From: a virus | Lineage: Duplodnaviria; Caudoviricetes | IMG/VR virus record: IMGVR_UViG_3300017909_004705 | Direction: 5' to 3' (one strand) | Length of the DNA stretch: 64,000 bases | Program-made: the position numbers and the translations under genes | Shown: in pieces, positions 1 to 53,364 of the stretch | Position numbering within the stretch: the first letter of the stretch is position 1 | Layout: the number at the start of each line of letters is the position of its first letter | Notes under the pieces: generated by a model | Databases searched by the model: none | What the model was told of the DNA's origin: nothing | Seen by the model: the letters and a program-made list of their open reading frames with translations, nothing else

Positions 1-908
1 TTTTGGTGTGCGGCTATGCAACCTAGACTTGATCCTGCATCACCTGGGTTTGGAATTATCCAGATGTTGTCAAATAGTCCTAGGTTTGCAAGTACCTTGT
101 TGGCCGCACAGTTAAGTGCTACTCCGCCGGCATACACCAAATTACGTGATCCATACCTACTTGCCCTGTGCCATAGATCTGCAAGGCACTCTTCCGTCAC
201 TGCCTGTATACTGGCCGCAAGGTCCATTGGATCTGCTTCCGGATGCCACTCGCTTAACCCCCTGTGTAGATTTTGCTTCAACTTAAATGGAGACTGATAC
301 ACAAAGTCATTGTATATGTCTTCTTTGTATTTTGGCTCACCGTATGCGGCCATGCCCATTAAAATGTATTCTTCTTCCGCAGGCTTCAGTCCACAACGAT
401 GTGTAAATGCACTGTAAAGTATTCCTATGCTGTGCGGATACTTGATTGTTTCCTTCCTTTCAATCCATATTTTTTCCGCAGTGGATATTGACACTGTATC
501 CCATTCACCAATTGCGTCGACTGTTAGTATTGTTGCCTCTCTGAAAGGCGATGTAAAATATCCTGCCGCGGCGTGAGAGTCATGATGTTTCACGTACTCG
601 TCGATCTTGATGTTGAAATTGTCTAGATGCCATTGTGGCAATTCTGTATGACTTAATGCATCTGACCATTGTCCTGCGTAAAGTTGCCGTGTTTTTTTCA
701 GCCAAGGCTTTTCATAATAAACAACTTTGTCGAAAGGACCATATGTCATTGCCTCATTTACTATTTGCCAATTAAGATAGTGATCGTTTTTGACCTTTGA
801 ATAGCGTTCTGCGTGTGCGGCCCATAAAACCTCACCTATGCCAGAACTGTAATCTACCACTGACATGGCGGCATCATGATTCATACAATTAATTCCTAGT
901 ATCTTCAT
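1..908 (-). CDS. Carbamoyltransferase (CmcH/NodU/TobZ family), runs off the window edge
   Basis: Not in the ORF track. Manual translation from ATG at 908 gives MKILGINCMNHDAAMSVVD...AHAERYSKVKND...HHDSHAAAGYFTSPF...TVDAIGEWDT...YPHSIGILYSAFT...EEEYILMGMAAYG...GGVALNCAAN...PNPGDAGSSLG, the hallmark NodU motifs. Confidence 0.93.
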   Translation of the reverse strand, partial: MKILGINCMNHDAAMSVVDYSSGIGEVLWAAHAERYSKVKNDHYLNWQIVNEAMTYGPFDKVVYYEKPWLKKTRQLYAGQWSDALSHTELPQWHLDNFNIKIDEYVKHHDSHAAAGYFTSPFREATILTVDAIGEWDTVSISTAEKIWIERKETIKYPHSIGILYSAFTHRCGLKPAEEEYILMGMAAYGEPKYKEDIYNDFVYQSPFKLKQNLHRGLSEWHPEADPMDLAASIQAVTEECLADLWHRASRYGSRNLVYAGGVALNCAANKVLANLGLFDNIWIIPNPGDAGSSLGCIAAHQ

Positions 909-1053
909 CTTCCTCCTTGTGCCAACCCCTGTCCTCGATATTGTTGCCTTTGCATTTAGGACATGCCCAACCCTCTTCCGAGTCGTCCTGTATTAGATCC
1001 TGTGGTGCCCCACGCCACTGACAGCCATAGCAATACCAGTTCCACCAGGCCAT
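889..1053 (-). CDS. Small Zn-ribbon/rubredoxin-like protein (CxxC...CxxC)
   Basis: MAWWNWYCYGC...WACPKC. ATG at 1053 directly follows the trxB stop, and the 3' end overlaps the carbamoyltransferase start. Confidence 0.65.
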   Translation of the reverse strand: MAWWNWYCYGCQWRGAPQDLIQDDSEEGWACPKCKGNNIEDRGWHKEEDEDTRN

Positions 1054-1054
1054 C

Positions 1055-1996
1055 CTATTTTGTCTCTTGTCCTGCAAGATATTTCTCTGCTTCCAGGGCC
1101 GCCATGCAACCCATTCCGGCGGCTGTCACCGCCTGCCTATAAGTTTTATCTTTTACGTCACCAGCGGCATAAACTCCTTCTACGCTAGTAAGAGTTGAAT
1201 CAGGTTTTGTAATTATGTAATTCTCATTGTCCATCTCTACTTGGCCTTTGAATATGCCTGTGGCTGGATCATGCCCTATTGCAATGAATACTCCATCTAT
1301 TTTCTTTTCAGTGATAGATCCATCCACTGTGCTTTTAAGTTTCACACCAGTAACGTTATTTGGATTCTCATCTCCCACTATTTCTTCAATCTGGCTGTTC
1401 CAAATACATTCGATCTTTTTGTGTGCAAATAACCTGTCCTGCAAAATTTTTTCTGCCCTTAATTTGTCTCTCCTATGCACAAGATAGACTTTACTTGCCA
1501 TTCCTGTGAGGTAAAGTGCTTCTTCAACTGCACTGTTTCCACCGCCAACCACTATGACCTCCTTGTCCTTAAAAAAGAATCCATCACATGTTGCACAGGC
1601 AGAAACTCCGAATCCTGAAAATTTCTTTTCACTTTCTATTCCCAACCATCTTGCTTGGGCGCCTGTTGATATGATCACACTGTCGGCCGTGTATGTTTCT
1701 CCACTTTCCCCTACTGCGGTGAATGGTCTATTACTGAAATCAACTGATTTAATCATGTCTGTAATGATGTCTGTGCCAACACTTTTAGCCTGTTGCTCCA
1801 TCTGTTGCATCAACCACGGCCCTTGTATTACATCACCAAATCCAGGATAGTTTTCCACGTCAGTTGTTATTGTCAATTGTCCTCCTGGTTGCATACCCTG
1901 TACCAACGTTGGCTTCAGCATCGCCCTTGCTGTGTATATGGCCGCGGTATAACCAGCGGGACCTGATCCAATAATTAAAACTTTTGAATGTTTCAT
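1055..1996 (-). CDS. trxB: Thioredoxin-disulfide reductase
   Basis: GSGPAG FAD motif, GGQLTITTDVENYPG, CATCDG redox centre, GGGNSAVEEA, AAGDV...YRQAVTAAGMGC. Likely start is MKHSKV at 1996 (ATGA overlap with the upstream stop). Confidence 0.96.
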   Translation of the reverse strand: MKHSKVLIIGSGPAGYTAAIYTARAMLKPTLVQGMQPGGQLTITTDVENYPGFGDVIQGPWLMQQMEQQAKSVGTDIITDMIKSVDFSNRPFTAVGESGETYTADSVIISTGAQARWLGIESEKKFSGFGVSACATCDGFFFKDKEVIVVGGGNSAVEEALYLTGMASKVYLVHRRDKLRAEKILQDRLFAHKKIECIWNSQIEEIVGDENPNNVTGVKLKSTVDGSITEKKIDGVFIAIGHDPATGIFKGQVEMDNENYIITKPDSTLTSVEGVYAAGDVKDKTYRQAVTAAGMGCMAALEAEKYLAGQETK

Positions 1997-2670
1997 TTTA
2001 CTTTCAAGAATCCTTTCGCTTTTACTAAAGCAGTCTCCCAATCTTCCAATGTCATGTCATATTCAAAATTTTGCGAAGTTTCGTTTACCTGTAATTCTTT
2101 AGCACCATTTTTAGTATGGAAATTCCTTGCCATTTTAGTCAACGGTGAAAGTGTAACCAATCGATTTAGATGATTTGATTTTTTGATTCTCTTGTACACT
2201 TCATTTATTATTGCACGTCCTCCGCCTTTTTTCTTTGCCCAAACTGTGTAAGCCACTGCAATCGACCCTTGCACTCCTGCCCTGTTACTGGACCTGATTG
2301 CGGAATCATAACTAAATTTTTCTAGTTCTTCAACGGTCTTTGGTACCTCATCCGTAAAAGCAAAACAAATGATGGCAGAGATGTCACCTTCGTCATCTCG
2401 CAATCCTAGTATTTTTCTACCATATGTTTGTCTGAATACTAAATCTAGTTCAGGACGGACTGGATCTTCTGTGACGTCAATATATGGAAGTTCTACAAGT
2501 GTATACTTTGATTCTTTTATTTTTTGTTTTGTGTATGCTTCTAAACTTTTATAATTTTTATTTGTGTAACTTTGTAACTTTGAAAATTTTTCCAATAGTC
2601 CGGTGACCGAAGGATGCTCTTTCCATCGTTCCAAAACCTCTTTCAGTTTTTCTTTATTAAGTATTTCCAT
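1993..2670 (-). CDS. GNAT-fold protein resembling the malonyl-CoA decarboxylase catalytic domain
   Basis: IAVAYTVW...GGGRAII...LVTLSPL resembles the MCD/GNAT motifs AVFYSIS...FVTLSP. Confidence 0.5.
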   Translation of the reverse strand: MEILNKEKLKEVLERWKEHPSVTGLLEKFSKLQSYTNKNYKSLEAYTKQKIKESKYTLVELPYIDVTEDPVRPELDLVFRQTYGRKILGLRDDEGDISAIICFAFTDEVPKTVEELEKFSYDSAIRSSNRAGVQGSIAVAYTVWAKKKGGGRAIINEVYKRIKKSNHLNRLVTLSPLTKMARNFHTKNGAKELQVNETSQNFEYDMTLEDWETALVKAKGFLKVK

Positions 2671-2672
2671 TT

Positions 2673-2777
2673 TTATTTGTAAATGAATGGATCTTTCTTC
2701 TTAAGTTCTTTCACTCTTTTTCTATAGGCTATTTCTTGTTTGAATTTAAGCCAAAGATTTTTTATCCATTTAAACAT
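2673..2777 (-). CDS. 34-aa basic micro-protein ending KDPFIYK
   Basis: Manual translation gives MFKWIKNLWLKFKQEIAYRKRVKELKKKDPFIYK. It has a GGAG Shine-Dalgarno upstream and fills the gap between flanking genes exactly. Confidence 0.75.
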   Translation of the reverse strand: MFKWIKNLWLKFKQEIAYRKRVKELKKKDPFIYK

Positions 2778-3447
2778 GATTTGTCTCCTTTCTAAAAACA
2801 TATGTTGTTAATCCGCCGTTCCTCCAGTTCCATAATATTCCTGGATGACTGTCTACGAATTTATAATCCATAAACATCTTTTTTACATCTCTACTGTAAA
2901 AACTTAATTCGTAAGGATGTTGTTCCTGATCTATTTCTAGGGTTTGAGTAGCATAATCATTTGGCAATAACTTTTGCAACCTCTTGCCCCATGGATGATA
3001 AAGACCTATTATGAACATACCACCGTTGTGTAGCATGTTTTGTAACCTTGCTAAAGTCTGCATGTAATCAGGTATGTGATGCAACACGCCCTGGCATATG
3101 ATTGTATCGAAACCATCATGTGTTTCAAACCTTGTAAGATCTTCTTTTATGAATTTAAGATTAGGCCTGTTCAGTTCTTCTTTTATTTTCACTGCATAAT
3201 TTATACTATCTGCAAAATCTACTCCGGTAAAGTTTTTGGTAGGATAGGTTTGTGCAAGATAGTTCACCATGAAACCTGTGCCACAACCTGCGTCGAGGAC
3301 AGTACGGCTATGCATTATACTGTTTGATATGAAAGCAATATAACGATTTTGCCCTGCATAGGTCTTAACAGACTGAGCAGTGTAAGGACCTGGAAAAGGA
3401 TGTTTATTATAAAAACCTTTTACCTGATCGCTTTTATTTGTATTCAT
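2770..3447 (-). CDS. Class I SAM-dependent methyltransferase
   Basis: VLDAGCGTG motif I, GVD motif II, FDTIICQGVLHH; N-terminal FYNKHPFP. Confidence 0.9.
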   Translation of the reverse strand: MNTNKSDQVKGFYNKHPFPGPYTAQSVKTYAGQNRYIAFISNSIMHSRTVLDAGCGTGFMVNYLAQTYPTKNFTGVDFADSINYAVKIKEELNRPNLKFIKEDLTRFETHDGFDTIICQGVLHHIPDYMQTLARLQNMLHNGGMFIIGLYHPWGKRLQKLLPNDYATQTLEIDQEQHPYELSFYSRDVKKMFMDYKFVDSHPGILWNWRNGGLTTYVFRKETNHV

Positions 3448-3550
3448 AAGGATCCTTCATTTTCAATTCTTCTAGTCTTTTTTTCAATTTTCTTCTGTAT
3501 GCAATTTTCTGTATCATTTTGTCAAAGAGTTGTTTTATCCATGATATCAT
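3434..3550 (-). CDS. 38-aa basic micro-protein ending KDPYEYK (paralog of 2673-2777)
   Basis: Manual translation gives MISWIKQLFDKMIQKIAYRRKLKKRLEELKMKDPYEYK. ATGA overlap with the upstream stop and a GGAG Shine-Dalgarno. Confidence 0.75.
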   Translation of the reverse strand: MISWIKQLFDKMIQKIAYRRKLKKRLEELKMKDPYEYK

Positions 3551-4350
3551 AGTTTTTCTCCTGTTATTTTTTTAAACACTGGTAACATTAATTTTACAGC
3601 ATCATCGTGTGATTCGTCAAGTGGATGAGTTGTACCCCTTTCGTAGTCATTTAACAATGCCCACTGGTTAAAACCCATCATCCTTTCACCAAAACTAAAC
3701 CATTTAGTAATATCAATTTCATTGTATAAGGCATTCATAAATTTGTCCTGATCTTTGTGATGTTTCATCTCATTGTAAAACAAACTGTTATCTGCCAGTG
3801 TGAACATAAATGGTATTTTCTTTTTTTCCAAGATATTCTGTAACCAAATTATGCTCTTCCAACTTTGGTAGACTTCGTGGTATTCATTTGCCGCGTGTCT
3901 ATAAATTGCCTCGGCAAAAGGTCTGACCCCTGTTTCTGCCAACAGGGATGACCTACGTTTCCAAACTTCTTGTTGCCCCTCTGATCCTAAAAGTGCTTTA
4001 TGCCTTTCTTCGTTTGTCATTGTAGTGTCCCAAGGTGATATCGATACCCAACGTGTGTCCTCTAATACTTTGTGCCTTGGCATTGCCCAATCATACCTTG
4101 ATGTGAACGTCCACATAACAACCACCATATCTATATTATTATTCTGTGACACTGAATTAAACACCCTACGTGCTATGCCTGAATTGCCAGTGCCCGGCAC
4201 TGCTGAACAAATAAAGTTTCCTGTTGGTTGGCAGTGCTTGAATAGTCCATAGGCCCATGTCTGCTTGGAGTCAGTTTTACCATTGTTGTCGTCTGATAAC
4301 TCCGATCCGTATGTAAAACTACAACCCCCTGCTAAAAAATCTCTAATCAT
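3547..4350 (-). CDS. SGNH/GDSL-like hydrolase or acyltransferase
   Basis: N-terminal GCSFTYG, PGTGN (block II-like), VVMWTFTSR and C-terminal HP, typical of phage SGNH-like proteins. Confidence 0.65.
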   Translation of the reverse strand: MIRDFLAGGCSFTYGSELSDDNNGKTDSKQTWAYGLFKHCQPTGNFICSAVPGTGNSGIARRVFNSVSQNNNIDMVVVMWTFTSRYDWAMPRHKVLEDTRWVSISPWDTTMTNEERHKALLGSEGQQEVWKRRSSLLAETGVRPFAEAIYRHAANEYHEVYQSWKSIIWLQNILEKKKIPFMFTLADNSLFYNEMKHHKDQDKFMNALYNEIDITKWFSFGERMMGFNQWALLNDYERGTTHPLDESHDDAVKLMLPVFKKITGEKL

Positions 4351-5521
4351 AAATCTGTAAAACCTTATTTAAAAGTGGAAATACTTCTCCAAAATTTTCC
4401 TTTCTATACTTGTCTGTCCGCAATATTCTAGCCTTACGCTGTTCTCTCATCTCAGGAGAATCCCTGTCCACGGCATTCATGAATCTAATGCTAGGCTGAT
4501 AGTCTGTGAGCATGTGATATCTATCCGTGACTATATCTTTGATTTGTTTTGGTAGGGTCTGAACATTGAAGATATCAGGGTCGAAACAGGTGTTTACATA
4601 AAAAAACTTGGGCTGGTACTGTGCTACCCATAACGCAATCTTGGCCCAATTGAACACATTGAATATTGATACCGTTGAACATATCTGAAATTCCATGTTG
4701 GGTGTTTGCATCTCCTTAAACTTGACAAGGTTAGCACTAACTTGCCGCCAATTGGCTGGATGTCGCTGATACTCGAATGCTTCGCCTATGTCATCTATAC
4801 TAAATGCTATTTCCACGTGTTTGAAGTATGCCCAAAGATCAAATATTTCCTGTGGTGGCAAATGGGTGCCGTTTGTGTTGTAATGTATGTCAATATTTTT
4901 GGCATATCCTTTTTCAACACAGTGCATTAGAATTTTGAAATGATCCTTTATCATAAAAGGTTCACCGCCTGTAAATTCAAAGTGCTCCACATGTTTTAAA
5001 TCCTCTTGCAGTTCTTCAAAAAACTGTGGATTACGTTTTGGCCATCCGCCGTCTTTCAATTGCTGTCTTGCAACAGGATTATCAGAACCTATGGCCTTTT
5101 CATAGTCTATTTCTTCCTGTGCCCATTTGCTTGAACTCCACGATCCGCAGATCCTACACTTGAGGTTGCAAACGTTACCTAACTTAAAGTCTATAAACTT
5201 TAGCGTTGGCTCGCTGTTAGGTGTCCAATCTTTGAGGCTCTTGTTCATTTTGTATATTGAGTTCTGCCTTTTTGATGTTTTACCGGCATCCTCCTCAGCC
5301 CAGCAGTTTGCACAACCTAAAGGTCTCTCTCCTTTACGGAACTGTTCTCGTAATTTTTCCATGTATTCTGTTTTCTGTATAGTTCTTAAGCTCTGTTTGT
5401 ACACTTTGACCTCTGGTATGCTACCTTTGTAGAGACAGCAAGGAGACGCACCGCCGTTTACATCCACTTCCAAGTGTGTCCATGGTAACGGACAGACAGT
5501 TGATTTTATATACTTTTCCAC
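4343..5521 (-). CDS. Radical SAM protein with N-terminal SPASM/twitch-like domain (array copy 5)
   Basis: CPLPW...PCC...CANC followed by CNLKCRIC, GGEP, YNTNG, SIDD. Confidence 0.9.
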   Translation of the reverse strand: MEKYIKSTVCPLPWTHLEVDVNGGASPCCLYKGSIPEVKVYKQSLRTIQKTEYMEKLREQFRKGERPLGCANCWAEEDAGKTSKRQNSIYKMNKSLKDWTPNSEPTLKFIDFKLGNVCNLKCRICGSWSSSKWAQEEIDYEKAIGSDNPVARQQLKDGGWPKRNPQFFEELQEDLKHVEHFEFTGGEPFMIKDHFKILMHCVEKGYAKNIDIHYNTNGTHLPPQEIFDLWAYFKHVEIAFSIDDIGEAFEYQRHPANWRQVSANLVKFKEMQTPNMEFQICSTVSIFNVFNWAKIALWVAQYQPKFFYVNTCFDPDIFNVQTLPKQIKDIVTDRYHMLTDYQPSIRFMNAVDRDSPEMREQRKARILRTDKYRKENFGEVFPLLNKVLQIYD

Positions 5522-6852
5522 CAGTCTAATATCCTTTTATCTCTTTTCAAAATATGTGTGATATCTTGTTTTCTTATTTTGTCAAGATACAGTTGTCTTA
5601 ATTTTCCCTTTTTTGTTGGGGTAAATGTTTCTCTTGTCTTTAAATTTTTAATCACATCGATCAATGCCCTTTGTTTGTGCGTGGCCTTTGGCTCCATGTA
5701 TTCCAATGCTTCATCAATAATTGTGTGTAGTAAATCTTTTGGCAGTGACAATGGACTTAAAATTTCGTCATTGCTAAAAGTAAACATGACTTTTGTCAAA
5801 ACTTCAGTGTTCAACTCTTGACTTAGGTCAAACATATTTTGTAACTCTAATAGTCCAGGCATTGTGATAGTATAATCCAATCTCATTTGTCTAGAGTGAG
5901 TTGATACTGATAAACCTTCTTTGAAATTACGCAACCACTGTGTGTAATCTAGTCCGTCTCTGATATATTCTGCAACTTCGCCGGTGCCGTCCATAGACGC
6001 ACACACCTGCCAATCATTAAAATATTTCAAAATGTCAAAAAGATTGGAGTTTCTAAAAGAGGTTCTGCTTAAATTAGTATTGTATCTAACATACACTTCG
6101 TCAGCAAATCCAAGTTCTATTATCCTTTCCATTGCTTTCCAATGCATATCCCACATCAGTGGTTCCCCTCCACACCAATAAATTTCTCTTATTTGTTTTG
6201 TTTCGATTGAATCTACAAACTCTTGTACAATTTGCTTATCTTGAAACTTTTGTATCTGTTCTCGTAAAGGAGATGCCATCCAAGGCTGTGACTCTTTGCT
6301 CCAGGTTTTGTTCTTCCTGGATTCTGCTTCCCAACTTGAACTTAACATATCACCACACATCCTACATTTAAAATTGCATAAGTTATTGAACCTATAATCA
6401 AAACTTATAGTTGGCATAGTAGTAGCACCCGTATCATCGGTTTTTGCAAACGCTTCATCAATCCTGTCTGCGAACAATTTATTCCAATACGATCTATAAA
6501 CATCTGTGTTCAAAAGTTTATGATCACACACTTGACATTCGGGTAATTCTTCCCCTGCCATCATACGCAGTCTAACAGATCGCATGTGATCTGAATTCCA
6601 GTGTTCTTTTAGCGTAAGAGGTTTGTATTCTTTTGCATTATTTCCTGTATCTATGTACTGTTTGAAACTTTGGGCAGGCTCTCTTGATGCACAACACATA
6701 CGCCTCTCGGTCTGTGGTGACAAGTAAGTGTGCGTCCATGGAGCCATACAAAATGTCTTGTTTCCATCCTTTGGCTTGACACGTTTTGACACTTTAGCCA
6801 CCTCTCCGTTCCTTGGCCATCTCTCATCCGCTGTTGGAAATCTATCCGGCAT
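5506..6852 (-). CDS. Radical SAM protein with N-terminal SPASM/twitch-like domain (array copy 4)
   Basis: CMAPW...MCC...CQVC; CNFKCRMC; GGEP; YNTN. Confidence 0.9.
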   Translation of the reverse strand: MPDRFPTADERWPRNGEVAKVSKRVKPKDGNKTFCMAPWTHTYLSPQTERRMCCASREPAQSFKQYIDTGNNAKEYKPLTLKEHWNSDHMRSVRLRMMAGEELPECQVCDHKLLNTDVYRSYWNKLFADRIDEAFAKTDDTGATTMPTISFDYRFNNLCNFKCRMCGDMLSSSWEAESRKNKTWSKESQPWMASPLREQIQKFQDKQIVQEFVDSIETKQIREIYWCGGEPLMWDMHWKAMERIIELGFADEVYVRYNTNLSRTSFRNSNLFDILKYFNDWQVCASMDGTGEVAEYIRDGLDYTQWLRNFKEGLSVSTHSRQMRLDYTITMPGLLELQNMFDLSQELNTEVLTKVMFTFSNDEILSPLSLPKDLLHTIIDEALEYMEPKATHKQRALIDVIKNLKTRETFTPTKKGKLRQLYLDKIRKQDITHILKRDKRILDWWKSI

Positions 6853-10822: not shown

Positions 10823-11708
10823 GGTCTTGCACTCCTGTGTTTTTGTGTGGTGGATAGATGTATTTGATGAACCTGCTCTGGTACTCGTCCAGTTCGGCCA
10901 CGGGCAGGTCAATCCTCTGTCTTATGCTTTCTCCATACAGTCTTAGATCCTCGTCGATGTTATCTGGTTTCACTGAATTCTCATATAGGTCGATCATCTT
11001 GTCGAGATCCCTAACCTGTATCCATTCGTTGGAGTCCACTGTGGTGCTGTAGCAACCCATCCTTGCCCCCAGCATTGCATACTTGCCATTGTCCACATCG
11101 GCTCCCACTGTCATCCATGTGCTGAGTATCCTCAAGTTAGGACCCCATATCTTTTTCATAAATTCGTCTGGTCGGATGTGTTCACCCTGGTTGAGACTCA
11201 TCTTGACTCCTTCCCTATATCCTGCTATCCAGGCCTGGAAAGGTTCACTGTTGATCACACTCGTTGAATAACAGTTGTGCAAGTTTTCATGCTTCACTGT
11301 CCAGCAAAAATCTATCTCCGCTTTTTTGTCTTTTGCATTTTCATGTGTGTGCATGTTAAGGCAAGTTTCTTTGTCCCAGCCAACCAATCCGCCATTTCCA
11401 TACACCAGTCCATTGATTATGTTCTTTGCCCGCCACCTGTGTACTGCTTTCCTGTCTGTCTTTTCGAAGTCCAGTGTCTGTAAAAGGAATCGTTCGTCGA
11501 TGATGTTGTCACCATCAACACTTATGAAGAAATCGGTCTCTGAAATTTCTGCCGCGGCCTTGTGTGCAGAATCAAAACCTTTTACACCGTCAACACGTTT
11601 TGCCCATGGAACCTTGTTTTTTAGGTCAGCCCAATTTTCTTCTTTGTTGGGTTCCATGTAACTGATGTAAACAAAATCTAGGTCTGTTACTCGGATTTTA
11701 TCTGCCAT
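10809..11708 (-). CDS. GT-A fold glycosyltransferase (GT2-like)
   Basis: FVYISYMEP, GVKGFDSAHKAAA, FISVDGDN (DxD), YGNGG. Confidence 0.7.
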   Translation of the reverse strand: MADKIRVTDLDFVYISYMEPNKEENWADLKNKVPWAKRVDGVKGFDSAHKAAAEISETDFFISVDGDNIIDERFLLQTLDFEKTDRKAVHRWRAKNIINGLVYGNGGLVGWDKETCLNMHTHENAKDKKAEIDFCWTVKHENLHNCYSTSVINSEPFQAWIAGYREGVKMSLNQGEHIRPDEFMKKIWGPNLRILSTWMTVGADVDNGKYAMLGARMGCYSTTVDSNEWIQVRDLDKMIDLYENSVKPDNIDEDLRLYGESIRQRIDLPVAELDEYQSRFIKYIYPPHKNTGVQDREYK

Positions 11709-11989
11709 TGGTATCCTTTCTCTGCCACGTCCTCTATCCAGTATGGATCACCTTCATGGAAATGTGCTCCAACATCTGCCTTAACCAATACTTTGCACTT
11801 GACTTTAGTTTTTTTTCTTGGTCTGAGAACTATGTTTCCATCTTTGAGCATGAATGCTGACTCCCCAGAACGCATTATCTCCAATTTCTTTTCAAGGCTT
11901 ACTTCTATGCTCTGTCCATCTACGGTGACCATGTGCCTCTTTTTCTTTGGCGGCGGCATGTCTGCAAGTGCTCTAAGAAGTGGATCCAT
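11687..11989 (-). CDS. Hypothetical protein
   Basis: 100-aa ORF overlapping both neighbours in the operon. Confidence 0.6.
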   Translation of the reverse strand: MDPLLRALADMPPPKKKRHMVTVDGQSIEVSLEKKLEIMRSGESAFMLKDGNIVLRPRKKTKVKCKVLVKADVGAHFHEGDPYWIEDVAEKGYQWQIKSE

Positions 11990-12773
11990 TCAATTCTCCT
12001 ACTAATTTCTTGTTGTGATAATGCACTATCCTGCTTTGCCTATAGCCTCCCATGTATAGTCTGTGTCCCACCTTGAGAGGGTAAAGGAAATTGTCGTTGT
12101 CGAATTGCTGTCCTATGCCATTGATGTGCTGTTTGTTGTGCATGAACTTGAACCATTCATAATCAATTTTGCCATTTTGTAAAGGATCCTGTATTTTGTT
12201 TGCCAATGCATACACCACATCTGTGGTAGGCTGTTCGTCATGGCAGTTCACAAGTACTTTTTCTTTTACAGTCTTCCAATCTTTTATTATAGTTTCACAG
12301 ATGTCATAGAACTGTTTTGCCTTGACGCTCCTTCTAAAATAATGTAGACCATTGTACACATCAGGCAATCTGTTTCTCTCAAACAACTTCCTATAGAAAC
12401 TGCTTACTATTACCCTGTCCTGATAGTTCCTACAATTATATGAGAACACTTGATCATGTTGCCAAAGGAAATTCCACCACCAGTCTGTGTTTTGTGTGAA
12501 CAACATGTCCGCCTCAAGTTTGATTGTGTGAGTGAACGGTGTCAATGCAAACACCTTGTATTCATTGTTTAGTTTCCATTCCTGTCCTGCACTGTCATCT
12601 TCTTTGAGAACTTTGACAAAATCAAACAGTTCATCCTCCAGAGGTTTGTCAGTGATCACGCAAACCTTGTTATGCCGATTTACTTCCTTGATACTTTTGG
12701 CCAGTGTTCTGCTGAGTGCAACATAGTCCGTGGTTGAGTTGTTCAACGCAAACCAAACATATCCCCTATCCAT
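11973..12773 (-). CDS. GT-A glycosyltransferase-like protein (GT8-like)
   Basis: DYVALS..LAKSIK...VCVITD, TPFTHTIKLEADM (ExD), TDVVYALA, HYHNK. Confidence 0.7.
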   Translation of the reverse strand: MDRGYVWFALNNSTTDYVALSRTLAKSIKEVNRHNKVCVITDKPLEDELFDFVKVLKEDDSAGQEWKLNNEYKVFALTPFTHTIKLEADMLFTQNTDWWWNFLWQHDQVFSYNCRNYQDRVIVSSFYRKLFERNRLPDVYNGLHYFRRSVKAKQFYDICETIIKDWKTVKEKVLVNCHDEQPTTDVVYALANKIQDPLQNGKIDYEWFKFMHNKQHINGIGQQFDNDNFLYPLKVGHRLYMGGYRQSRIVHYHNKKLVGELNGSTS

Positions 12774-13518
12774 TGCACCACTCCTTGTCCATTATGTGTA
12801 CGTCCAATCCAGATGTTAAATTGACTTTGTTGCCGTGTTTGAAAATTATACCATCGTCATCACTGTCCAGAACGTCAACGCTGTCAGCCAACATGCTCAT
12901 AGGCGTTGGTATCCTATCTCCCAGGTTCAACTGATGCAGTGCTATTGCGAACGCATAGTCATTCCTGTAATTCTCATAACGAATCCTGTAAAGGTTCTTG
13001 TAGTGTGTATAATACTGTTGCACGTGTTTGATCAATTCAAATATCTGTTTAGTTTTCTCTGTTTTACGGAATAGAGTCACCGTCGCCCAAACCAAAGGCA
13101 GAGTGCTTTCATCCTTGCCCTCTATCATGTTTTGCCCTGTGAGATCCTTAACACGATCATGCAACATCATGTCAAATTTAGTATTTGCAAGTTCAAGTAG
13201 AGTTGAAGAGAAAACAAAGTAGTCACAGTCCATCAGTATGGTTGTGTCGTAGGGAGAATGTTCGTATGCAAGAGCACGTTCTTTGTTGTACCATGCAACA
13301 TTTTTTCCCCTGTATGTTCTCTTATTTGTTGTCTTTGCGTCCACCAACTTATAGTTGATCATGCCCATAGGTTTGAATTTCTTAAATGTCTCTAAATTTG
13401 TTACTATCGTAATTTCTAGTTGTAGATACTTTTTGATTTGTGCCACACAACGCTCAGCCAACTTGTGATATTGTGTGTCAGGATTGTCGAAACAATATAT
13501 TAGGACCCCAGTCGTCAT
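12766..13518 (-). CDS. GT-A glycosyltransferase-like protein (GT8-like)
   Basis: SPYDTTILMDCDY (DxD), RNDYAFAIA, HIMDK; paralogous to 11973-12773. Confidence 0.7.
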   Translation of the reverse strand: MTTGVLIYCFDNPDTQYHKLAERCVAQIKKYLQLEITIVTNLETFKKFKPMGMINYKLVDAKTTNKRTYRGKNVAWYNKERALAYEHSPYDTTILMDCDYFVFSSTLLELANTKFDMMLHDRVKDLTGQNMIEGKDESTLPLVWATVTLFRKTEKTKQIFELIKHVQQYYTHYKNLYRIRYENYRNDYAFAIALHQLNLGDRIPTPMSMLADSVDVLDSDDDGIIFKHGNKVNLTSGLDVHIMDKEWCNG

Positions 13519-13835
13519 TATCTTCCCTTAGTTGAGAGATCTTGATGCAGTCGGTGATATGCGTTCAGTGTTTCCTGGTTCCTTTGTATCAATCTTCGTA
13601 GGAAATCATCCGGGTCTTGTATGTGACAAGGATTGTCGTTCACGTCCAACACAAAAAAATCTTTGTTATGTTGCTTCATTGTGCTTACAAGATTTATGGT
13701 GTCAGCGTTAGCCTTAAAAAGCCTTTCGTTGTAAGCCATCAACTGTCGAGAACGCATCTTTTCCAGTGCGTTGTCCTTAGCCTGTGCGACTTCAAAGTTA
13801 AGGTCCGAGTGTTTCTTAATATTGCCAATATCCAT
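13518..13835 (-). CDS. Hypothetical protein, first gene behind the sigma70-like promoter
   Basis: 105-aa ORF, translationally coupled to the downstream glycosyltransferase. Confidence 0.65.
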   Translation of the reverse strand: MDIGNIKKHSDLNFEVAQAKDNALEKMRSRQLMAYNERLFKANADTINLVSTMKQHNKDFFVLDVNDNPCHIQDPDDFLRRLIQRNQETLNAYHRLHQDLSTKGR

Positions 13836-13843
13836 ATAACTGT

Positions 13844-13872
13844 ATTATACAGTTAATTATTGCTGAATGCAA
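13844..13872 (-). promoter_or_regulatory. Sigma70-type promoter TTGCAT-N17-TATAAT for the modification cluster, overlapped by palindrome TAACTGTA-N3-TACAGTTA
   Basis: Plus-strand ATGCAA at 13867-13872 and ATTATA at 13844-13849, 17-bp spacer. Confidence 0.65.
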
Positions 13873-13888
13873 TATGGAAAATAATTTA

Positions 13889-14866
13889 TTATGCTGTAGT
13901 GTTGGACTCTATCGCACTTGCTGATATTGTAGCAACGGAACCTAGACCCTGGTCCGTCGTTGGGTTTACAGTGTGCAATGCCCAGTCTGTCGTACCAATG
14001 AAGTTTGCGAACTGGTCCACACCTGAAGTGTTACCATCTGTGAACTCTGAGTCTCCTGAGTCAGCGTCAATCACTGAACACTTGATTGTTACCTTTGTAG
14101 CATCGCCATAAGTGGCGTTGTCCACTTTGCCTTCTATCTTTAGATCCATGGTTGTGTAGGTTCCACTGGATTGTCTAATTACAGCAATAGTTACGTATGA
14201 TGTGCCGAAGTCATCTACTCCGTTTGCGAGACCATCAGTCTGTAGTGTCTCACCTGAACCTGATCTTGTTGATACCTGTGCGCCGATGTCAAAGTTGCCC
14301 AGTGCCGTGATCAACTCGTCAACTGAAGCATCCTTTGATGTGGCGGAACCACCACCGTTGCCTGTTCTGGTCAATTTAATTCTTATCTTACCACCTGCGT
14401 TGAAGAAATGTCTTAAGTCATTGCCGTTTGCAAAACTTACTGAATGTTCAACCACGTGTGAACCAGCGTATCTTGTTCCTGATGCCGCACTTCTAAGTTC
14501 TGAACTTTCAGATACTGCTGTGGCATTAACACAACCACCCGCGACTGATGCCGATAGAGTTGCCAGGTCCGTGGCTACAGCGGCTTTGATCTTTATTGGA
14601 TCTCCTGCTGTTACCTGTCCCCTTGCTGTCATTGAATCGTTTGTGTGGTTGGCAATGTTGTCAATCCCTGCTAGAAGTGAATTCCAACTGGCCGCTTTGA
14701 TAAGATTAGAATCTGAAGCACTTACCTGTGCTAACTCTGTTTGGCCCAGTCCTTGATTGCCTGATCCTGTGCCGGCAATGTGATTGTAACCAAATGGAGA
14801 ACTTGAACTCGCAACAAATACGTTGTATTCATCGTCTTTGATGGTTTCGCCTGCTACATATCCCAT
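13889..14866 (-). CDS. Virion structural protein (tail fibre/baseplate associated)
   Basis: S/T/G-rich, FANGNDLRHFFNAGGKI motif, located at the end of the fibre gene block. Confidence 0.65.
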   Translation of the reverse strand: MGYVAGETIKDDEYNVFVASSSSPFGYNHIAGTGSGNQGLGQTELAQVSASDSNLIKAASWNSLLAGIDNIANHTNDSMTARGQVTAGDPIKIKAAVATDLATLSASVAGGCVNATAVSESSELRSAASGTRYAGSHVVEHSVSFANGNDLRHFFNAGGKIRIKLTRTGNGGGSATSKDASVDELITALGNFDIGAQVSTRSGSGETLQTDGLANGVDDFGTSYVTIAVIRQSSGTYTTMDLKIEGKVDNATYGDATKVTIKCSVIDADSGDSEFTDGNTSGVDQFANFIGTTDWALHTVNPTTDQGLGSVATISASAIESNTTA

Positions 14867-14870
14867 AATT

Positions 14871-16496
14871 CTATTTGACTCCTATCACACACTCTGTGAG
14901 TGCTGTTTCTTCATTATATTTAGCTTTTATTAAACGCCCTATTACATTAAAATGGTTGCATTCGTCTGCCGTGGCCACACGTGCTTCGGCATTTCCTGCC
15001 GAAACTAGCCTGTCACCTGCCTTGCCAGTGCCTTTGAGCTTCACGAACACACGTCCTTTCAGTGCTACCATAGGATGTGTGTGGTTGTTTCCTGCCTGTG
15101 CATTCATCAAAAATGCTGGTGAATCTGACACTACACCAAAAACAGCGTCTGAAAGTTCAGTTTGACATTTGGTAACTTCAGCATGGCCTCCCAACTGCAC
15201 TACATCACCTGCTTCTGTTTCACAGTCAGCCTCGTATCTCTCTGCCAAGTCAGCATATTGGGCCGATGTCGATGTAGCGTGAACAATGTTTGCTCTTAGA
15301 TCAACCAAGGTTGGTGCTTCTAGTTCAGTGTCACCATCAGCGCCTTTGAACGCCGTCCAGGCACCACCTGCATTGCCATGAATCGTTGTGCCGTCATCCG
15401 CGAATGTTTCGTCCCACACCCAATAAAGGTTCTGTTCTGTTGCACTCGATGTTGCACCTCTGTTGACCTTCAATCCAGAATAACTTGGCATTCCTGCGTT
15501 TGAAGAAATATTCCTATTCAATTCTATTATATTGTCTTCTACAGAAAGAGTTACTGTGTTCATTATGGTGTTTGTGCCATCAACTGTCAAATCGCCAACT
15601 CTTAGATGTTCAATCCTTCCTGTGGATCCTTTGATTCTTAACGCTTCTGTCTGTGTTCCACCGTCATTGACCGTGAAAATTATGTCTTTGTTTTCTGTAG
15701 TTTGTGCAATGGTGAAATCATCGCTTGAAAGTTGCATGGTTACATCTGAACCGGCACCTATTGTAATACCTAAATCATTCAACACACCCAAACTTCCTGA
15801 TGTTGTGTCATTGGCATTGGATCTTAGGTAGTTGGCCGCGGCTACTCCACCCAATGAATCCGAGTCTGTGGAGGTACCTCTGAATTTTGCAGAAGTTACC
15901 GCTGATGAAAGTTGAATACCCTGTGCGACTGTGGAATATCCTGCCGCGATAAGAGCCGCGCCTGCCGTCTCCGAAGAGCTAGGAGTAAATGCCAAGTTGG
16001 AAACAACTCCAACCACAGCATCATTGGCCACAAATTTTAAGATGTCTCTGTTTACACCGGTGTTGTCTTGTATGGTTTCTGGAATGGCATTGGTCACACC
16101 TGAACCTGCAACCGTTGTTGGTCCAATCAGTGTCCAAGCAGATCCATCATATACGTAATACTGTTTGTTGGTAGTGTCAAACCATTCATCACCAAGCACA
16201 GCATTAGTTGGTGCAGTGGTTGACGGAGTAGGTCCCAGTGGTTTAAATTTTGCTCCTGTGTACACGTTAAGTTGATTGTTAGTCTTGTCGTACCACAGTT
16301 GTCCTTGAATTTTGTTGTTTGGTGCTGATGTGTTGTTAAAATTTTCTAGAAGTTTTACAAGGTTTTCATTCAACGCCTCTCCGAAACCCGCATAACCTTT
16401 TCCGATCAGTGTGAGATCAGTTGTGGTTGTGTCTATCGTTCCATCCGCGAGGGTGACCAATAAGGTTCCGAATGTGTTGTTTATCTTGTAAGCCAT
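14871..16496 (-). CDS. Tail fibre/baseplate fibre with C-terminal intramolecular-chaperone-like (peptidase G2-type) domain
   Basis: Shared fibre N-terminus (GKGYAGFGEALNENLVKLLENF...GQLWYD); C-terminal AQYADLAERY...FGVVS..PAFLMN...VALKGRV. Confidence 0.75.
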   Translation of the reverse strand: MAYKINNTFGTLLVTLADGTIDTTTTDLTLIGKGYAGFGEALNENLVKLLENFNNTSAPNNKIQGQLWYDKTNNQLNVYTGAKFKPLGPTPSTTAPTNAVLGDEWFDTTNKQYYVYDGSAWTLIGPTTVAGSGVTNAIPETIQDNTGVNRDILKFVANDAVVGVVSNLAFTPSSSETAGAALIAAGYSTVAQGIQLSSAVTSAKFRGTSTDSDSLGGVAAANYLRSNANDTTSGSLGVLNDLGITIGAGSDVTMQLSSDDFTIAQTTENKDIIFTVNDGGTQTEALRIKGSTGRIEHLRVGDLTVDGTNTIMNTVTLSVEDNIIELNRNISSNAGMPSYSGLKVNRGATSSATEQNLYWVWDETFADDGTTIHGNAGGAWTAFKGADGDTELEAPTLVDLRANIVHATSTSAQYADLAERYEADCETEAGDVVQLGGHAEVTKCQTELSDAVFGVVSDSPAFLMNAQAGNNHTHPMVALKGRVFVKLKGTGKAGDRLVSAGNAEARVATADECNHFNVIGRLIKAKYNEETALTECVIGVK

Positions 16497-16499
16497 ACT

Positions 16500-16679
16500 T
16501 TAATTGTTTGATGCGTTGTCTCTTACGTCTACTAGAAAACTAACATCACCCACCAACTTGATTAATATAGCCGCTAATTCTGGTGTAAGCATTTGATCTA
16601 TCTTTGCCTCTTCGGCATCAGTCCATGCTGTTCCGTAGTTTGCATTGATGTAATCTGCCACTTCTTGTTTTGTTGCCAT
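16500..16679 (-). CDS. 59-aa hypothetical protein
   Basis: Below the ORF-track cutoff. MATKQEVADYINANYGTAWTDAEEAKIDQMLTPELAAILIKLVGDVSFLVDVRDNASNN, with an AGGAG Shine-Dalgarno and TAAATA upstream. Confidence 0.7.
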   Translation of the reverse strand: MATKQEVADYINANYGTAWTDAEEAKIDQMLTPELAAILIKLVGDVSFLVDVRDNASNN

Positions 16680-16698
16680 TTAAATGTACTCCTTATGC

Positions 16699-17163
16699 TT
16701 ATTTATTACGGCTGTTGATCTGCTCATCGTCTGATATCCAAGTTAAATCCTCAGAATATGCCCCATCGAGATCACGTAAAAATGTCTTAACATTGCTTTC
16801 CGTAAGCATCATATTGTGGTATTTTGTGTATCTTTTGTGAAGTGCCTGTTCCTTTGTGGCGGTGTATACCAACTTCAGCTCTCTTTCTTTTGCCAGTTTC
16901 ATTATACTGTCTATGCACAACTTCAAAGCAGTGTGTACTTTGCGACTATCCGCCTGTTTATCAGTGACAATCCATTCCATGAATCCAAACTGTGTGCCCT
17001 CTCCTATGTACAATCCTCCAGCACACAATGGCTTTCCGTTGTCTTCAATGATGATTCCCTCTGGTGGAAGGCACTCCTTTGGCACTTTGCCAAATTCCCA
17101 ATCAGCCCACCACTTGACTAAGGTGTCATAATCTTTATCTCTGTCCCACTTCCTACTTTGCAT
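16699..17163 (-). CDS. GNAT-like acyltransferase
   Basis: Pattern of beta-strands (PLCAGGLY, FGFMEWIVTD) plus helix and LVYTAT, consistent with a GNAT fold. Confidence 0.55.
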   Translation of the reverse strand: MQSRKWDRDKDYDTLVKWWADWEFGKVPKECLPPEGIIIEDNGKPLCAGGLYIGEGTQFGFMEWIVTDKQADSRKVHTALKLCIDSIMKLAKERELKLVYTATKEQALHKRYTKYHNMMLTESNVKTFLRDLDGAYSEDLTWISDDEQINSRNK

Positions 17164-17731
17164 TTTTTTGTATCACTATCTTGTTTATGTTATATCTTTT
17201 TGAAAAGCACATGTCTACGCATTCGGCCACATCTCCTGCATCCAACTTTGGGTATTCATCCCATAATCCATTGCTCATATCGGTATCTACAGTGTCGGGA
17301 CAAACATCATATATCTGTATGGGATAATCATAAAGATCTTGTTGAGCCTTCTCGATAAATTCAATCAATTCTTTTTTGTTTTTGCAATACCAATTATATT
17401 CTTGTTGCTTTAAACTGCTATCCATGCCAGCCTGGGTGCCAGACGTGCTTGTAATTACTGCCACATGCTTCTCATCATTTTTATATAAGTCAATGATTGC
17501 TTTTAACATTTTAAGTTGACTGTCTTTTGCGTAGGCATTCAACACAATATATTTGAAGTTTGCCATTTGTTGCACAATGGCATCACAGTCTTTGTCGACA
17601 TCGAGTCCTTCTGACTTTGATACTCCATAACAAAAATAATTTTTTGATTTGTACAAGTCAAATATTGCCTTTCCTATACCTCTGGTGTGGCCTGTAACAA
17701 ATATCCTAGGTTTTTTGCTTTCTTGACTCAT
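17153..17731 (-). CDS. Short-chain dehydrogenase/reductase
   Basis: VTGHTRGIG Rossmann motif, LNA, ITSTSG, YxxxK (YCKNK), PDTVDTDM. Confidence 0.8.
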   Translation of the reverse strand: MSQESKKPRIFVTGHTRGIGKAIFDLYKSKNYFCYGVSKSEGLDVDKDCDAIVQQMANFKYIVLNAYAKDSQLKMLKAIIDLYKNDEKHVAVITSTSGTQAGMDSSLKQQEYNWYCKNKKELIEFIEKAQQDLYDYPIQIYDVCPDTVDTDMSNGLWDEYPKLDAGDVAECVDMCFSKRYNINKIVIQKNAK

Positions 17732-18377
17732 ATGTATCAACTAAATTTTCCAGCCCTTCAAAACATTCTGAATAATGCTGGTAATATTTTTCAAACTTCT
17801 CTTTAGTATACTCTGATTCTTTGAAAAAGTCAATTAGCAAGGTGGTTCTCTCACCAGGATTATTGTTGAAACCGTTGTGTAACTGCCTGTCTGGCTGAAA
17901 TACAAAAGCATCTCCAGTTTTCCAAGTGTACAACTCTTGCTTTTCCGTATCAATGTTCATTACGTACATACCGCTTTGATCTCCACCACCGTCATCTAGG
18001 CACATTTGATATCTCCAACCGCCTTCGTTGTCAGTATGATTACCAATTTTCGTGTTTGGGCCAACCGTCATAATAGCAACATTAGTCTTGTAAGGAAATT
18101 TCCTTAGTATCGAATACAGTATCGGATAATCATTGAATGACTGACCTTCGTGATCTCCTGATTGTATTCCAAGTGCCCGCCACTGTCCATGCACATAGTC
18201 ACCTGACTTGTCATCAAAATCGTCAGGAAGTCCTCGCACACTGTCGGAAAAATCTTCTGGGTCTAGAAAAGTTTTGTTAGGTTGGGTGTCAAACTCGTGT
18301 TTAATGTTTTGCCAGTGTTTGTCTAACTGTCTAAAACATTCGCCTTGTTTTCCGTGGTAAAAACTTTTATCAAGCAT
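17706..18377 (-). CDS. Aspartyl/asparaginyl beta-hydroxylase-like 2OG-Fe(II) dioxygenase
   Basis: W..IKHE, GQWRAL, IGNHTD (HxD), WKTGDAFVF, distal H, ERTTLLIDF. Confidence 0.8.
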   Translation of the reverse strand: MLDKSFYHGKQGECFRQLDKHWQNIKHEFDTQPNKTFLDPEDFSDSVRGLPDDFDDKSGDYVHGQWRALGIQSGDHEGQSFNDYPILYSILRKFPYKTNVAIMTVGPNTKIGNHTDNEGGWRYQMCLDDGGGDQSGMYVMNIDTEKQELYTWKTGDAFVFQPDRQLHNGFNNNPGERTTLLIDFFKESEYTKEKFEKYYQHYSECFEGLENLVDTYESRKQKT

Positions 18378-19791: not shown

Positions 19792-19795
19792 GGGA

Positions 19796-21235: not shown

Positions 21236-21259
21236 TTCTTATATTTACCTCATCTTTTT

Positions 21260-51564: not shown

Positions 51565-51569
51565 TCCAC

Positions 51570-51598
51570 TTGACAAACCAGTTCGTACGTGCTTTAAT
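51570..51598 (+). promoter_or_regulatory. Sigma70-type promoter TTGACA-N17-TTTAAT
   Basis: Consensus -35 with correct spacing upstream of 51652. Confidence 0.6.
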
Positions 51599-51651
51599 TA
51601 CACTAACGTTAATTAATGTTATCGTACGACAACAAAGGAAGGACGTAAATT

Positions 51652-51846: not shown

Positions 51847-51868
51847 TAAATCAATTGAATTGCAGTTC

Positions 51869-53309: not shown

Positions 53310-53364
53310 GTCGGTATTTAAAGCCAAAAAGATTGACCTTGAAATAAAACTAATATAAACAAGT

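Follow-up and report, generated by a model that had tools for sequence, protein, structure and literature searches.

A candidate glycan-tailoring operon with five radical SAM enzymes adjoins the tail-fibre genes of an uncultured marine jumbo myovirus

The IMG/VR virus record IMGVR_UViG_3300017909_004705 carries, at the left end of the 64,000-nucleotide stretch analysed here (the window), a minus-strand operon of glycosyltransferase, radical S-adenosylmethionine (SAM), O-carbamoyltransferase and SGNH-like genes that adjoins the tail-fibre genes. A role of this operon in glycan tailoring is well supported. With moderate confidence, we read the whole as a phage glycan assembly and tailoring operon and consider a virion protein from the neighbouring fibre/baseplate module its likeliest acceptor. 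An initial annotation had described a candidate biosynthetic gene cluster for a modified glycan or other modification and had proposed virion proteins as its target, with DNA or the host surface as alternatives. The cluster itself is now supported by glycosyltransferase folds, the carbamoyltransferase profile, the dehydratase and DegT genes of relatives, the O-antigen context of bacterial homologues and the linkage to fibre genes, while the virion as its target is something that we still infer. Our literature searches agree with that annotation that no phage pathway of such composition has been characterised.

Results

Linkage of the operon to the fibre genes

The layout of open reading frames (ORFs) bears out the tightly overlapping minus-strand run that had been described directly behind the fibre genes. 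From the fibres (13889-16496 and 19796-22960) to the left window edge, the genes overlap or abut and are almost gapless. Scanning IMG/VR with a protein pattern yielded 69 loci, on contigs of up to 357 kb, which were compared by tblastn with all window proteins. The core was syntenic in these 69 viral contigs at 50-95% identity, and the order of the carbamoyltransferase, the SGNH-like protein, radical SAM enzymes 1 to 5, the GT-A protein, both GT8-like proteins, the 105-aa gene and the two upstream fibre genes was kept. Thus, the arrangement reflects more than chance. The genes for TrxB, the methyltransferase, the GNAT-like protein, the short-chain dehydrogenase (SDR), the hydroxylase and the 154-aa protein come and go across the loci. 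Co-occurrence with fibre genes had been proposed as a check of the decoration idea, and the linkage was indeed kept wherever a relative's flank was long enough, a complete genome at about 50% identity among them. A CheckV-complete relative of 357 kb has three fibre paralogues and the 325-aa fibre, followed by GT8, GT8, GT-A and additional genes, and then by the five radical SAM enzymes, SGNH, the micro-ORF described below and the carbamoyltransferase.

Within this fixed order, single radical SAM and glycosyltransferase genes are swapped for versions of about 50% identity to the window copies, in otherwise near-identical phages that reach about 90% at radical SAM 3. For instance, loci L003 and L005 both show 91% identity at radical SAM 3, while their values are 51% versus 83% at radical SAM 2 and 48% versus 87% at radical SAM 4. 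Mosaicism of this kind is typical of surface-glycan loci.

Beyond the window edge, relatives carry an NAD-dependent epimerase/4,6-dehydratase (Epimerase/GDP_Man_Dehyd) and a DegT aminotransferase directly after the carbamoyltransferase, and in one locus a further radical SAM gene. In the complete relative, DegT and epimerase genes are convergent to the cluster. This genome contains no sugar-1-phosphate nucleotidyltransferase, and host nucleotide sugars are therefore the likely input. It likewise yielded no PF02397 or PF00953 priming phosphoglycosyltransferase, no ABC-2 exporter and no membrane-embedded component.

Glycosyltransferase, carbamoyltransferase and SGNH-like proteins

NodU and TobZ carbamoylate sugars, SGNH proteins acylate or deacylate glycans, and radical SAM enzymes epimerise or oxidise sugars and peptides. 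None of the three glycosyltransferase candidates matched a Pfam family at E <= 0.01, and they were therefore tested by fold. The AlphaFold2 (AF2) model of protein 11973-12773 (predicted local distance difference test score, pLDDT, 90.6) matched glycogenin of family GT8 in Foldseek (E 2e-8, probability 1.0), with GT6 next, and its profile matched only glycogenins in PDB, at E 0.1. Together with its paralogue 12766-13518, it is predicted to have a GT8-like fold and is not to be taken as a member of the GT8 family. Invariant acidic motifs in the alignments, candidates for the metal-binding DxD that follows the fourth strand in such enzymes, are E87-x-D89 in one of the two and D97-x-D99 in the other.

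The N-domain of the AF2 model of protein 10809-11708 has a GT-A fold, which superimposed in VIA on B4GALNT1 (Z 10.1, root-mean-square deviation 3.0 over 139 residues), ThuS (Z 9.4), STIV A197 (Z 9.2) and also SunS, and D65-G-D67 (DxD) is invariant. This GT-A superfold includes IspD-type cytidylyltransferases (Z 8-9), and a nucleotidyltransferase role is a possible alternative for this protein. The closest folds to the glycosyltransferases of the operon are those of glycogenin, the glycocin transferases SunS/ThuS and ppGalNAc-T. Profile searches of PDB returned no informative match for the second GT8-like protein, the GT-A protein or the SGNH-like protein. Overall, the three GT-A glycosyltransferases proposed initially are borne out by predicted fold for two proteins and by paralogy (hhalign 97.7%) for the third.

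The carbamoyltransferase had been called NodU-type. Its Carbam_trans_N match (the Kae1-like N-domain) reached 146 bits versus a cut-off of 24, and the profile of full-length orthologues matched both domains of NovN, GdmN and TobZ (E 1e-75 to 1e-51). The YrdC-like C-domain, which makes carbamoyl-AMP, lies beyond the window; orthologues, with 95% identity in the part present here, match the C-domains of NovN, GdmN and TobZ at profile positions 318-476. The NodU equivalog NF041651 gave 38 bits versus a cut-off of 1000. Hence the family is confirmed and the protein is a member of it, not NodU, with a profile that suggests the sugar/small-molecule O-carbamoyltransferases NovN, GdmN and TobZ.

For the SGNH-like protein, no sequence match was found in Pfam, NCBIfam or PDB. 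Among 12 orthologues, S11 (in GGCSFT), G53, N56 and H248 are invariant and D245 (of D245-x-x-H248) is nearly so, which means that the block I Ser, the block III Gly/Asn and the block V Asp-x-x-His are all present. It also aligned in hhalign (93.7%) to a DUF6071 protein carrying GDS. These conserved blocks and the DUF6071 relationship support its prediction as an SGNH-like protein.

Five tandem radical SAM enzymes of family NF033640

The five radical SAM enzymes reported initially stand in tandem (4343-10822), are all paralogous and all belong to NCBIfam NF033640 (N_Twi_rSAM, twitch domain-containing radical SAM protein), with 293-413 bits (E 1e-87 to 1e-123) versus a curated cut-off of 170 bits. 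Far from the operon, two more NF033640 genes at 50006-51088 (plus strand, 188 bits) and 51899-52909 (minus strand, 179 bits) bring the number to seven copies in 64 kb. Alignment of the seven paralogues, whose pairwise identity is only 19-29%, revealed invariant N-terminal cysteines C33, C93 and C96, the CxxxCxxC motif (C146, C150, C153) and GGEP (G206-G207-E208). In three copies, Pfam PF13186 (SPASM/Twitch) matches at residues 10-110, N-terminal to the Radical_SAM core. We considered whether these N-terminal matches were mis-joined C-termini of upstream genes and rejected this, because each ORF is matched by the family model over its full length.

NF033640 is a family without a characterised member, and a match gives a name, not a function. 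Profile matches to PDB were remote only (E 1e-6 or worse), among them BlsE at 5e-4, MoaA at 9e-3 and BtrN at 0.05. Weak NCBIfam side-matches pointed to sactipeptide and ranthipeptide maturases, and weak similarity was seen to viperin, MoaA and QueE. Pfam identified no PqqD-like recognition domain in the five enzymes, although distant recognition elements of this type (RREs) can escape hidden Markov models. Our literature searches on N-terminal Twitch radical SAM enzymes, on radical SAM enzymes in jumbo phages and on those in O-antigen loci found nothing relevant. The family is expanded in relatives as well: the 357-kb genome has 12 NF033640 matches, 10 of them over the cut-off and including a second tandem array, and a 55%-complete relative has nine, two of which flank an epimerase gene at 142.9-147.3 kb in the order radical SAM-epimerase-radical SAM.

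As an electron-donor pair for the radical SAM enzymes, TrxB and the rubredoxin-like ORF between it and the carbamoyltransferase gene may be suited; both are accessory. A dedicated role of the two as the reductant of these enzymes, plausible in itself, was rejected, since both are absent from most relatives.

Bacterial homologues in glycan loci

Bacteria were searched in 401 genomes from each of two phyla (802 in total), with two query metagenome-assembled genomes (MAGs), whose matches lie on phage contigs, set aside. NF033640 occurred on genuinely bacterial contigs in only three of the 802. In one of them (G106, contig 19), adjoining dnaE and accA, rmlC, rmlD and Wzm stand with a Wzt-NF033640 fusion and a further three NF033640 genes, and the locus also encodes two methyltransferases, TylF-type among them, and a WbsX glycosyltransferase. 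The fusion (locus L085, 8579-11143) is an 854-aa ORF that joins the Wzt ATPase (ABC_tran) and Wzt_C to an NF033640 enzyme. In a second bacterial genome, the NF033640 gene adjoins a GT2 gene and an epimerase gene. These contexts are independent support for a glycan or nucleotide-sugar substrate of the family.

The same contexts give weight to a host-envelope target, in which the product of the same chemistry would be placed on the lipopolysaccharide (LPS)/O-antigen, capsule or peptidoglycan-linked glycan of the infected host through host lipid-linked intermediates and exporters, for superinfection exclusion or a pre-lysis change of the surface. Besides the bacterial array, which lies within a Wzm/Wzt O-antigen locus and includes the Wzt fusion, it would fit that Nol-like carbamoyltransferases with glycosyltransferases and methyltransferases are common in cyanophage and pelagiphage genomes, and that SGNH enzymes typically O-acylate or deacylate surface glycans. 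The missing phage priming enzyme and exporter would be no obstacle if those of the host serve. However, the operon always stands at the end of the fibre module and on the same strand, its mosaic variation tracks the neighbouring fibre genes, and a membrane-embedded component did not turn up in the complete relative. On balance, we regard a host-envelope target as doubtful.

A conserved micro-ORF beside the SGNH and carbamoyltransferase genes

The apparent gaps 3448-3546 and 2671-2769 each encode a small basic peptide that ends in KDPFIYK or a close variant, and this micro-ORF family is a newly found element. The 34-aa version lies 3' of the SGNH gene in about 60 of the 69 loci. Its diversity at codon positions 1, 2 and 3 is 0.21/0.12/0.47, and that of its last 15 codons is 0.09/0.03/0.41 over 40 distinct nucleotide versions; therefore, the peptide is under clear, strong purifying selection. 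The methyltransferase gene sits between the two copies and is absent from most loci. DNA contigs of relatives join position 2720 to 3533 across it. The peptide has conserved tyrosines and no conserved Cys, Ser or Thr.

A degenerate DNA scan of IMG/VR for the C-terminal motif matched at least 120 loci (L087-L206). Among the 120 matches listed, 115 end in the motif followed by a stop, and 85 are followed on the same strand by a Carbam_trans_N gene, which in 32 of these lies within 36 nt. Only 24 of those listed are of the glycan-operon type; of the remaining 96, 57 lie in a primase-helicase module and 68 stand with a 331-343-aa protein that has the Kae1-like domain only. Where inspected, the primase-helicase modules also encode ClpP, a 2-oxoglutarate (2OG) oxygenase and often DUF6071 proteins. 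A KDPFIYK-type motif also terminates some 91- and 170-aa proteins. As the motif accompanies Carbam_trans_N genes in two unrelated phage contexts, the peptide is tied to the carbamoyltransferase N-domain, and loosely to DUF6071/SGNH proteins, not to the radical SAM enzymes. No tblastn match to it was obtained in cultured phages, and none was seen near the carbamoyltransferases of S-SSM5, HTVC008M and C48C1, in the Vibrio K566 and Ralstonia RsoM2USA loci or in the bacterial radical SAM arrays. It may act as a partner or carrier, as a membrane anchor or as an arrest peptide.

The micro-ORF brings up the possibility of a product resembling a ribosomally synthesised and post-translationally modified peptide (RiPP). 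The five radical SAM enzymes would then be peptide maturases that cross-link or epimerise the 34-aa product or a fibre protein, and the glycosyltransferases and carbamoyltransferase would decorate it, for example at the conserved tyrosines, to yield a glycopeptide. Selection on the peptide in most loci, the frequent modification of peptides by SPASM/Twitch enzymes, the weak similarity to sactipeptide and ranthipeptide maturases, and glycosyltransferase folds close to the S-glycosyltransferases SunS/ThuS and to the tyrosine-glucosylating glycogenin are all consistent with it. What makes it improbable in our judgement is that the peptide family travels with Carbam_trans_N in phage replication modules without the radical SAM and glycosyltransferase genes, that the bacterial arrays have no such peptide, that conserved Cys, Ser and Thr are missing from it, and that a PqqD-like domain was not detected by Pfam in the radical SAM enzymes.

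Proposed pathway and its acceptor

For the substrates, step order, radical SAM reactions and target, we infer the following scheme. Host nucleotide sugars would be reshaped by the 4,6-dehydratase/epimerase and DegT aminotransferase encoded just past the window edge in relatives. A short glycan would then be built on the acceptor by three transferases of GT-A fold, of which two are glycogenin-like (GT8) and the third is GT2-like. The TobZ/NovN-type O-carbamoyltransferase and the SGNH/DUF6071 acyl-esterase would decorate this glycan, in some strains together with the methyltransferase and the GNAT-like enzyme. The five N-terminal-Twitch radical SAM paralogues would act one after another on the sugars by radical C-H chemistry; candidate reactions, drawn by analogy from DesII and the Twitch enzymes BtrN and BlsE, are epimerisation, dehydration or deoxygenation, oxidation, and C-C or C-methyl formation. 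The acceptor would be a virion protein of the fibre/baseplate module, with the host envelope as the main alternative.

A cytoplasmic protein acceptor, most simply a virion protein, is plausible and is favoured by three indirect observations, none of them decisive, namely the absence of priming and export genes from the complete relative, the fixed position at the fibre module, and glycosyltransferase folds like those of protein- or peptide-directed enzymes. Four perfect T4-type late promoter boxes, TATAAATA, lie at 40124, 45915, 56445 and 56478, all in intergenic gaps upstream of structural genes, and this placement suggests T4-like late transcription in the lineage. None lies in 1-23.7 kb; that there is none between the baseplate promoter at 40124 and the operon was counted in favour of the operon reading as a whole.

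Several points weigh against this reading of the operon. GT-A fold similarity does not identify the acceptor, and virion glycosylation is here a prediction from genes. NF033640 is a family without a known reaction, and even its nearest solved structures are distant. The window copies at 50006-52909 adjoin a homing endonuclease (SegE-type GIY-YIG, 52899-53582, beside the copy 51899-52909), not sugar genes, and one of the three bacterial contexts (G579) is uninformative. The O-antigen pathway in which bacterial homologues occur is an exported one, which points to an envelope glycan rather than a virion protein. Finally, peptides are frequent substrates of SPASM/Twitch enzymes, and the operon itself contains a conserved gene for a 34-aa peptide.

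A further candidate target is the DNA of the phage, which the cluster would hypermodify, on a base or nucleotide, with a glycan or a carbamoylated side chain as a shield against restriction. Radical SAM enzymes do occur in thymidine hypermodification pathways, and the similarity of the phage enzymes to viperin, MoaA and QueE noted above would agree with such a role. In other phages, Carbam_trans_N-only relatives with the micro-ORF lie between primase and helicase genes. Some phage glycosyltransferases are known to assemble complex glycans on DNA (Pyle et al. 2024, as cited in PMC12619734). However, the complete relative has only one gene of the thymidylate-synthase family, a canonical ThyA (352 bits) whose Asn (PFNIASY) specifies dUMP, and no dCMP hydroxymethylase is evident there; thus a hydroxymethyl-cytosine handle is not evident. 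Moreover, the cluster stands in the late structural region, not the replication region, and the DegT and 4,6-dehydratase genes point to free nucleotide-sugar chemistry. DNA is therefore an unlikely target, and we give this explanation very little credence.

Returning to the virion glycan, we also propose, as a speculation with a low chance of being right, that NF033640 is a new radical SAM class directed at glycans or nucleotide sugars, five members of which work in series to install a rearranged sugar on the phage's own tail fibres, with enzyme swaps diversifying the decoration, and that the KDPFIYK micro-protein is an obligatory partner of Kae1-type carbamoyltransferases (a carrier, an anchor or a translational sensor) and forms a new small-protein family of unrelated marine phages.

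Features of the operon and the fibre module

Features are listed in Table 1. The methyltransferase and TrxB named in the initial annotation are plain Pfam matches. Of the enzymes that it had placed among the fibre genes, the Asp/Asn hydroxylase and the SDR hold, while the GNAT assignment of 16699-17163 is a weak lead. The GNAT-like label of 1993-2670 is likewise weak, with Acetyltransf_1 or MCD in 13-45% of the members of its Atlas neighbours. The fibre-like genes 13889-16496 have a weak match to Peptidase_G2, an intramolecular-chaperone cleavage domain (E 2.7e-05, 24.1 bits, under the 25-bit cut-off).

Table 1. Genes of the operon and of the adjoining fibre module, with positions in the window
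Feature	Position	Strand	Support
O-carbamoyltransferase, N-terminal 302 residues; gene leaves left window edge	3..908	-	Carbam_trans_N 2e-42
Small Cys-rich ORF (CxxC ... WxCPxC), rubredoxin/zinc-ribbon-like, accessory	889..1077	-	conserved in 7 related loci
TrxB, thioredoxin-reductase-type flavoprotein, accessory	1055..1996	-	Pyr_redox_2 2.8e-54, CATC motif; only 3/69 related loci
GNAT-like protein, weak assignment, variable	1993..2670	-	phrog_1758 acetyltransferase E 0.0045
Micro-ORF copy 2, basic, 34 aa, KDPFIYK end	2673..2777	-	about 60/69 loci
SAM-dependent methyltransferase, variable insertion flanked by both micro-ORF copies	2770..3447	-	Methyltransf_31 3.5e-20, NodS 9e-8
Micro-ORF copy 1, 38 aa	3434..3550	-	start overlaps SGNH stop (ATGA)
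SGNH/DUF6071-like esterase or acyltransferase (predicted)	3547..4350	-	invariant catalytic blocks; hhalign 93.7% to DUF6071 protein
Radical SAM 1 (N_Twi_rSAM)	4343..5521	-	NF033640 9e-112, 374 bits
Radical SAM 2 (N_Twi_rSAM)	5506..6852	-	NF033640 1.9e-93
Radical SAM 3 (N_Twi_rSAM)	6842..8122	-	NF033640 1.8e-123, 413 bits
Radical SAM 4 (N_Twi_rSAM)	8112..9467	-	NF033640 3.5e-87
Radical SAM 5 (N_Twi_rSAM)	9452..10822	-	NF033640 9.5e-98; longest ORF to 10912, family match from residue 51
GT-A-fold glycosyltransferase-like protein, invariant DxD	10809..11708	-	AF2 pLDDT 84.5; VIA Z 10.1 to 9.0 to B4GALNT1, ThuS, SunS
100-aa protein, no assigned function, conserved at low identity	11687..11989	-	comparison of relatives
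GT8-like (glycogenin-fold) retaining glycosyltransferase (predicted)	11973..12773	-	AF2 pLDDT 90.6; Foldseek glycogenin 2e-8
Second GT8-like glycosyltransferase (predicted)	12766..13518	-	paralogue of 11973-12773, hhalign 97.7%; invariant D97-x-D99
Conserved 105-aa protein, no assigned function, first gene after fibres	13518..13835	-	comparison of relatives
Two fibre-like structural genes, 325 + 541 aa, directly upstream of operon	13889..16496	-	PHROG tail fibre and virion structural matches; conserved synteny
154-aa protein (GNAT lead only), variable, among fibres	16699..17163	-	one Atlas neighbour, 12%
SDR, variable, among fibres	17153..17740	-	adh_short 2.5e-8
Asp/Asn beta-hydroxylase-family oxygenase, variable, among fibres	17706..18377	-	PF05118 6.6e-11

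Side observations were made in the same region. Where the fibre genes end and the operon begins, a perfect palindrome of 17 bp with TATAAT lies in the gap 13836-13888 and may be a regulatory site. A scan for sigma-70 promoters and terminators showed no enrichment over shuffles. A conserved 59-aa ORF occupies an apparent gap of the fibre module (16497-16698, minus strand) and recurs in 46 related loci, often as a tandem duplicate. Among the fibre genes, and in only some relatives, a glycine-rich 473-aa protein (18370-19791, minus strand) has a C-terminal Hint (intein-like autoprocessing) start motif. A single 4308-aa ORF fills 23695-36621 (minus strand) between the baseplate wedge gene and the fibre genes.

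The phage and its distribution

By PHROG and tblastn matches, the window belongs to a T4-related jumbo myovirus of an abundant, uncultured marine lineage. The best matches of its gp6-type baseplate wedge (36621-40109), at about 35%, are to Sinorhizobium phage Phosso, Agrobacterium phage Atu_ph07 and Salicola phage SCTP-2, and the window also encodes gp25- and gp5-type baseplate proteins, a late sigma factor, gp46/47-type nuclease subunits and a portal. Adjoining the portal gene, a plus-strand gene at 60644-61279 has weak matches to the MptE-like/Maf and CST-I sialyltransferase families and may be another glycan-related gene.

Positions 1-20000 had no megablast match among cultured phages and are thus without a close cultured relative. 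In seawater metagenomes, thousands of close homologues of one radical SAM gene were found (radical SAM 3, with more than 6500 metagenomic homologues), and at least part of the stretch is present in seawater and estuary runs of ten studies. Every bin of 1-20000 is overlain by contigs of one metatranscriptomic run, mostly from relatives; as contigs of an RNA library are no proof of transcription, they do not count as evidence here. A scan of genome contigs for the family returned only phage contigs binned into MAGs. Contigs of the lineage (L072-L074) are binned in published MAGs labelled Betaproteobacteria, Verrucomicrobia and Rickettsiales, a placement that is likely to be binning contamination rather than host evidence.

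Discussion

New here are the fold tests of the glycosyltransferases, the Wzt fusion and its bacterial setting, the lack of priming and export genes in the complete relative and the micro-ORF family. The operon would give a first functional handle on NF033640, a curated model without a known reaction that is expanded to 7-12 copies per genome, and the bacterial Wzt fusion provides a cellular setting in which the chemistry should be tractable. If the product does sit on the fibres, it would bear on host recognition or defence evasion by marine jumbo phages and on the mosaicism of the locus. The micro-ORF is a separate candidate for a small protein or an arrest peptide.

Compared with the rest of NF033640, the phage enzymes share a score over the cut-off, the N-terminal Cys cluster, CxxxCxxC and GGEP; the family is expanded here to seven copies (12 in the complete relative) and is rare in the sampled bacteria. 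Like BtrN, BlsE, MoaA and DesII of the desosamine pathway, they combine a radical SAM core with an auxiliary Fe-S domain. However, this domain is C-terminal in BtrN, BlsE and MoaA and N-terminal in the phage enzymes, and the similarity is marginal. The company of a 4,6-dehydratase and DegT in the operon's relatives is the same as in deoxyaminosugar pathways.

Virus-encoded glycan pathways are known, none of which, to our knowledge, uses radical SAM chemistry. Glycosylation of the chlorovirus capsid and of Mimivirus fibrils is encoded by the viruses. Virus-encoded virion glycosylation is also represented by the capsid and tail-tube glycans of mycobacteriophages (Freeman et al. 2023, as cited in PMC12619734). 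Such systems resemble the phage operon in having GT-A transferases near structural genes and no lipid-linked export, and those of giant viruses also in a dehydratase, an aminotransferase and an acyltransferase. The mycobacteriophage, chlorovirus and Mimivirus systems are not known to have a radical SAM enzyme, carbamoyltransferase or SGNH protein, whereas the phage operon, known from its genes alone, has all of these. The 'moraphage' paper (PMC12619734) mentions core glycosyltransferases and no radical SAM enzymes, and we could not tell from it whether it describes the same lineage.

The 'LPS/cell-surface' islands of T4-like cyanophages and pelagiphages are closer in setting, since they too belong to marine T4-related myoviruses and hold carbamoyltransferase, glycosyltransferase, methyltransferase and 2OG oxygenase genes in variable regions. 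Their Nol-like carbamoyltransferases are only 28-35% identical, though, and the inspected islands have no radical SAM array, SGNH/DUF6071 gene or micro-ORF. As for Wzm/Wzt O-antigen loci, the phage operon is without Wzm/Wzt, a priming transferase and a ligase, and what the bacterial locus has in common with it is tandem NF033640 genes, of which there are four in that locus, set among rmlC/rmlD, methyltransferases and a WbsX glycosyltransferase.

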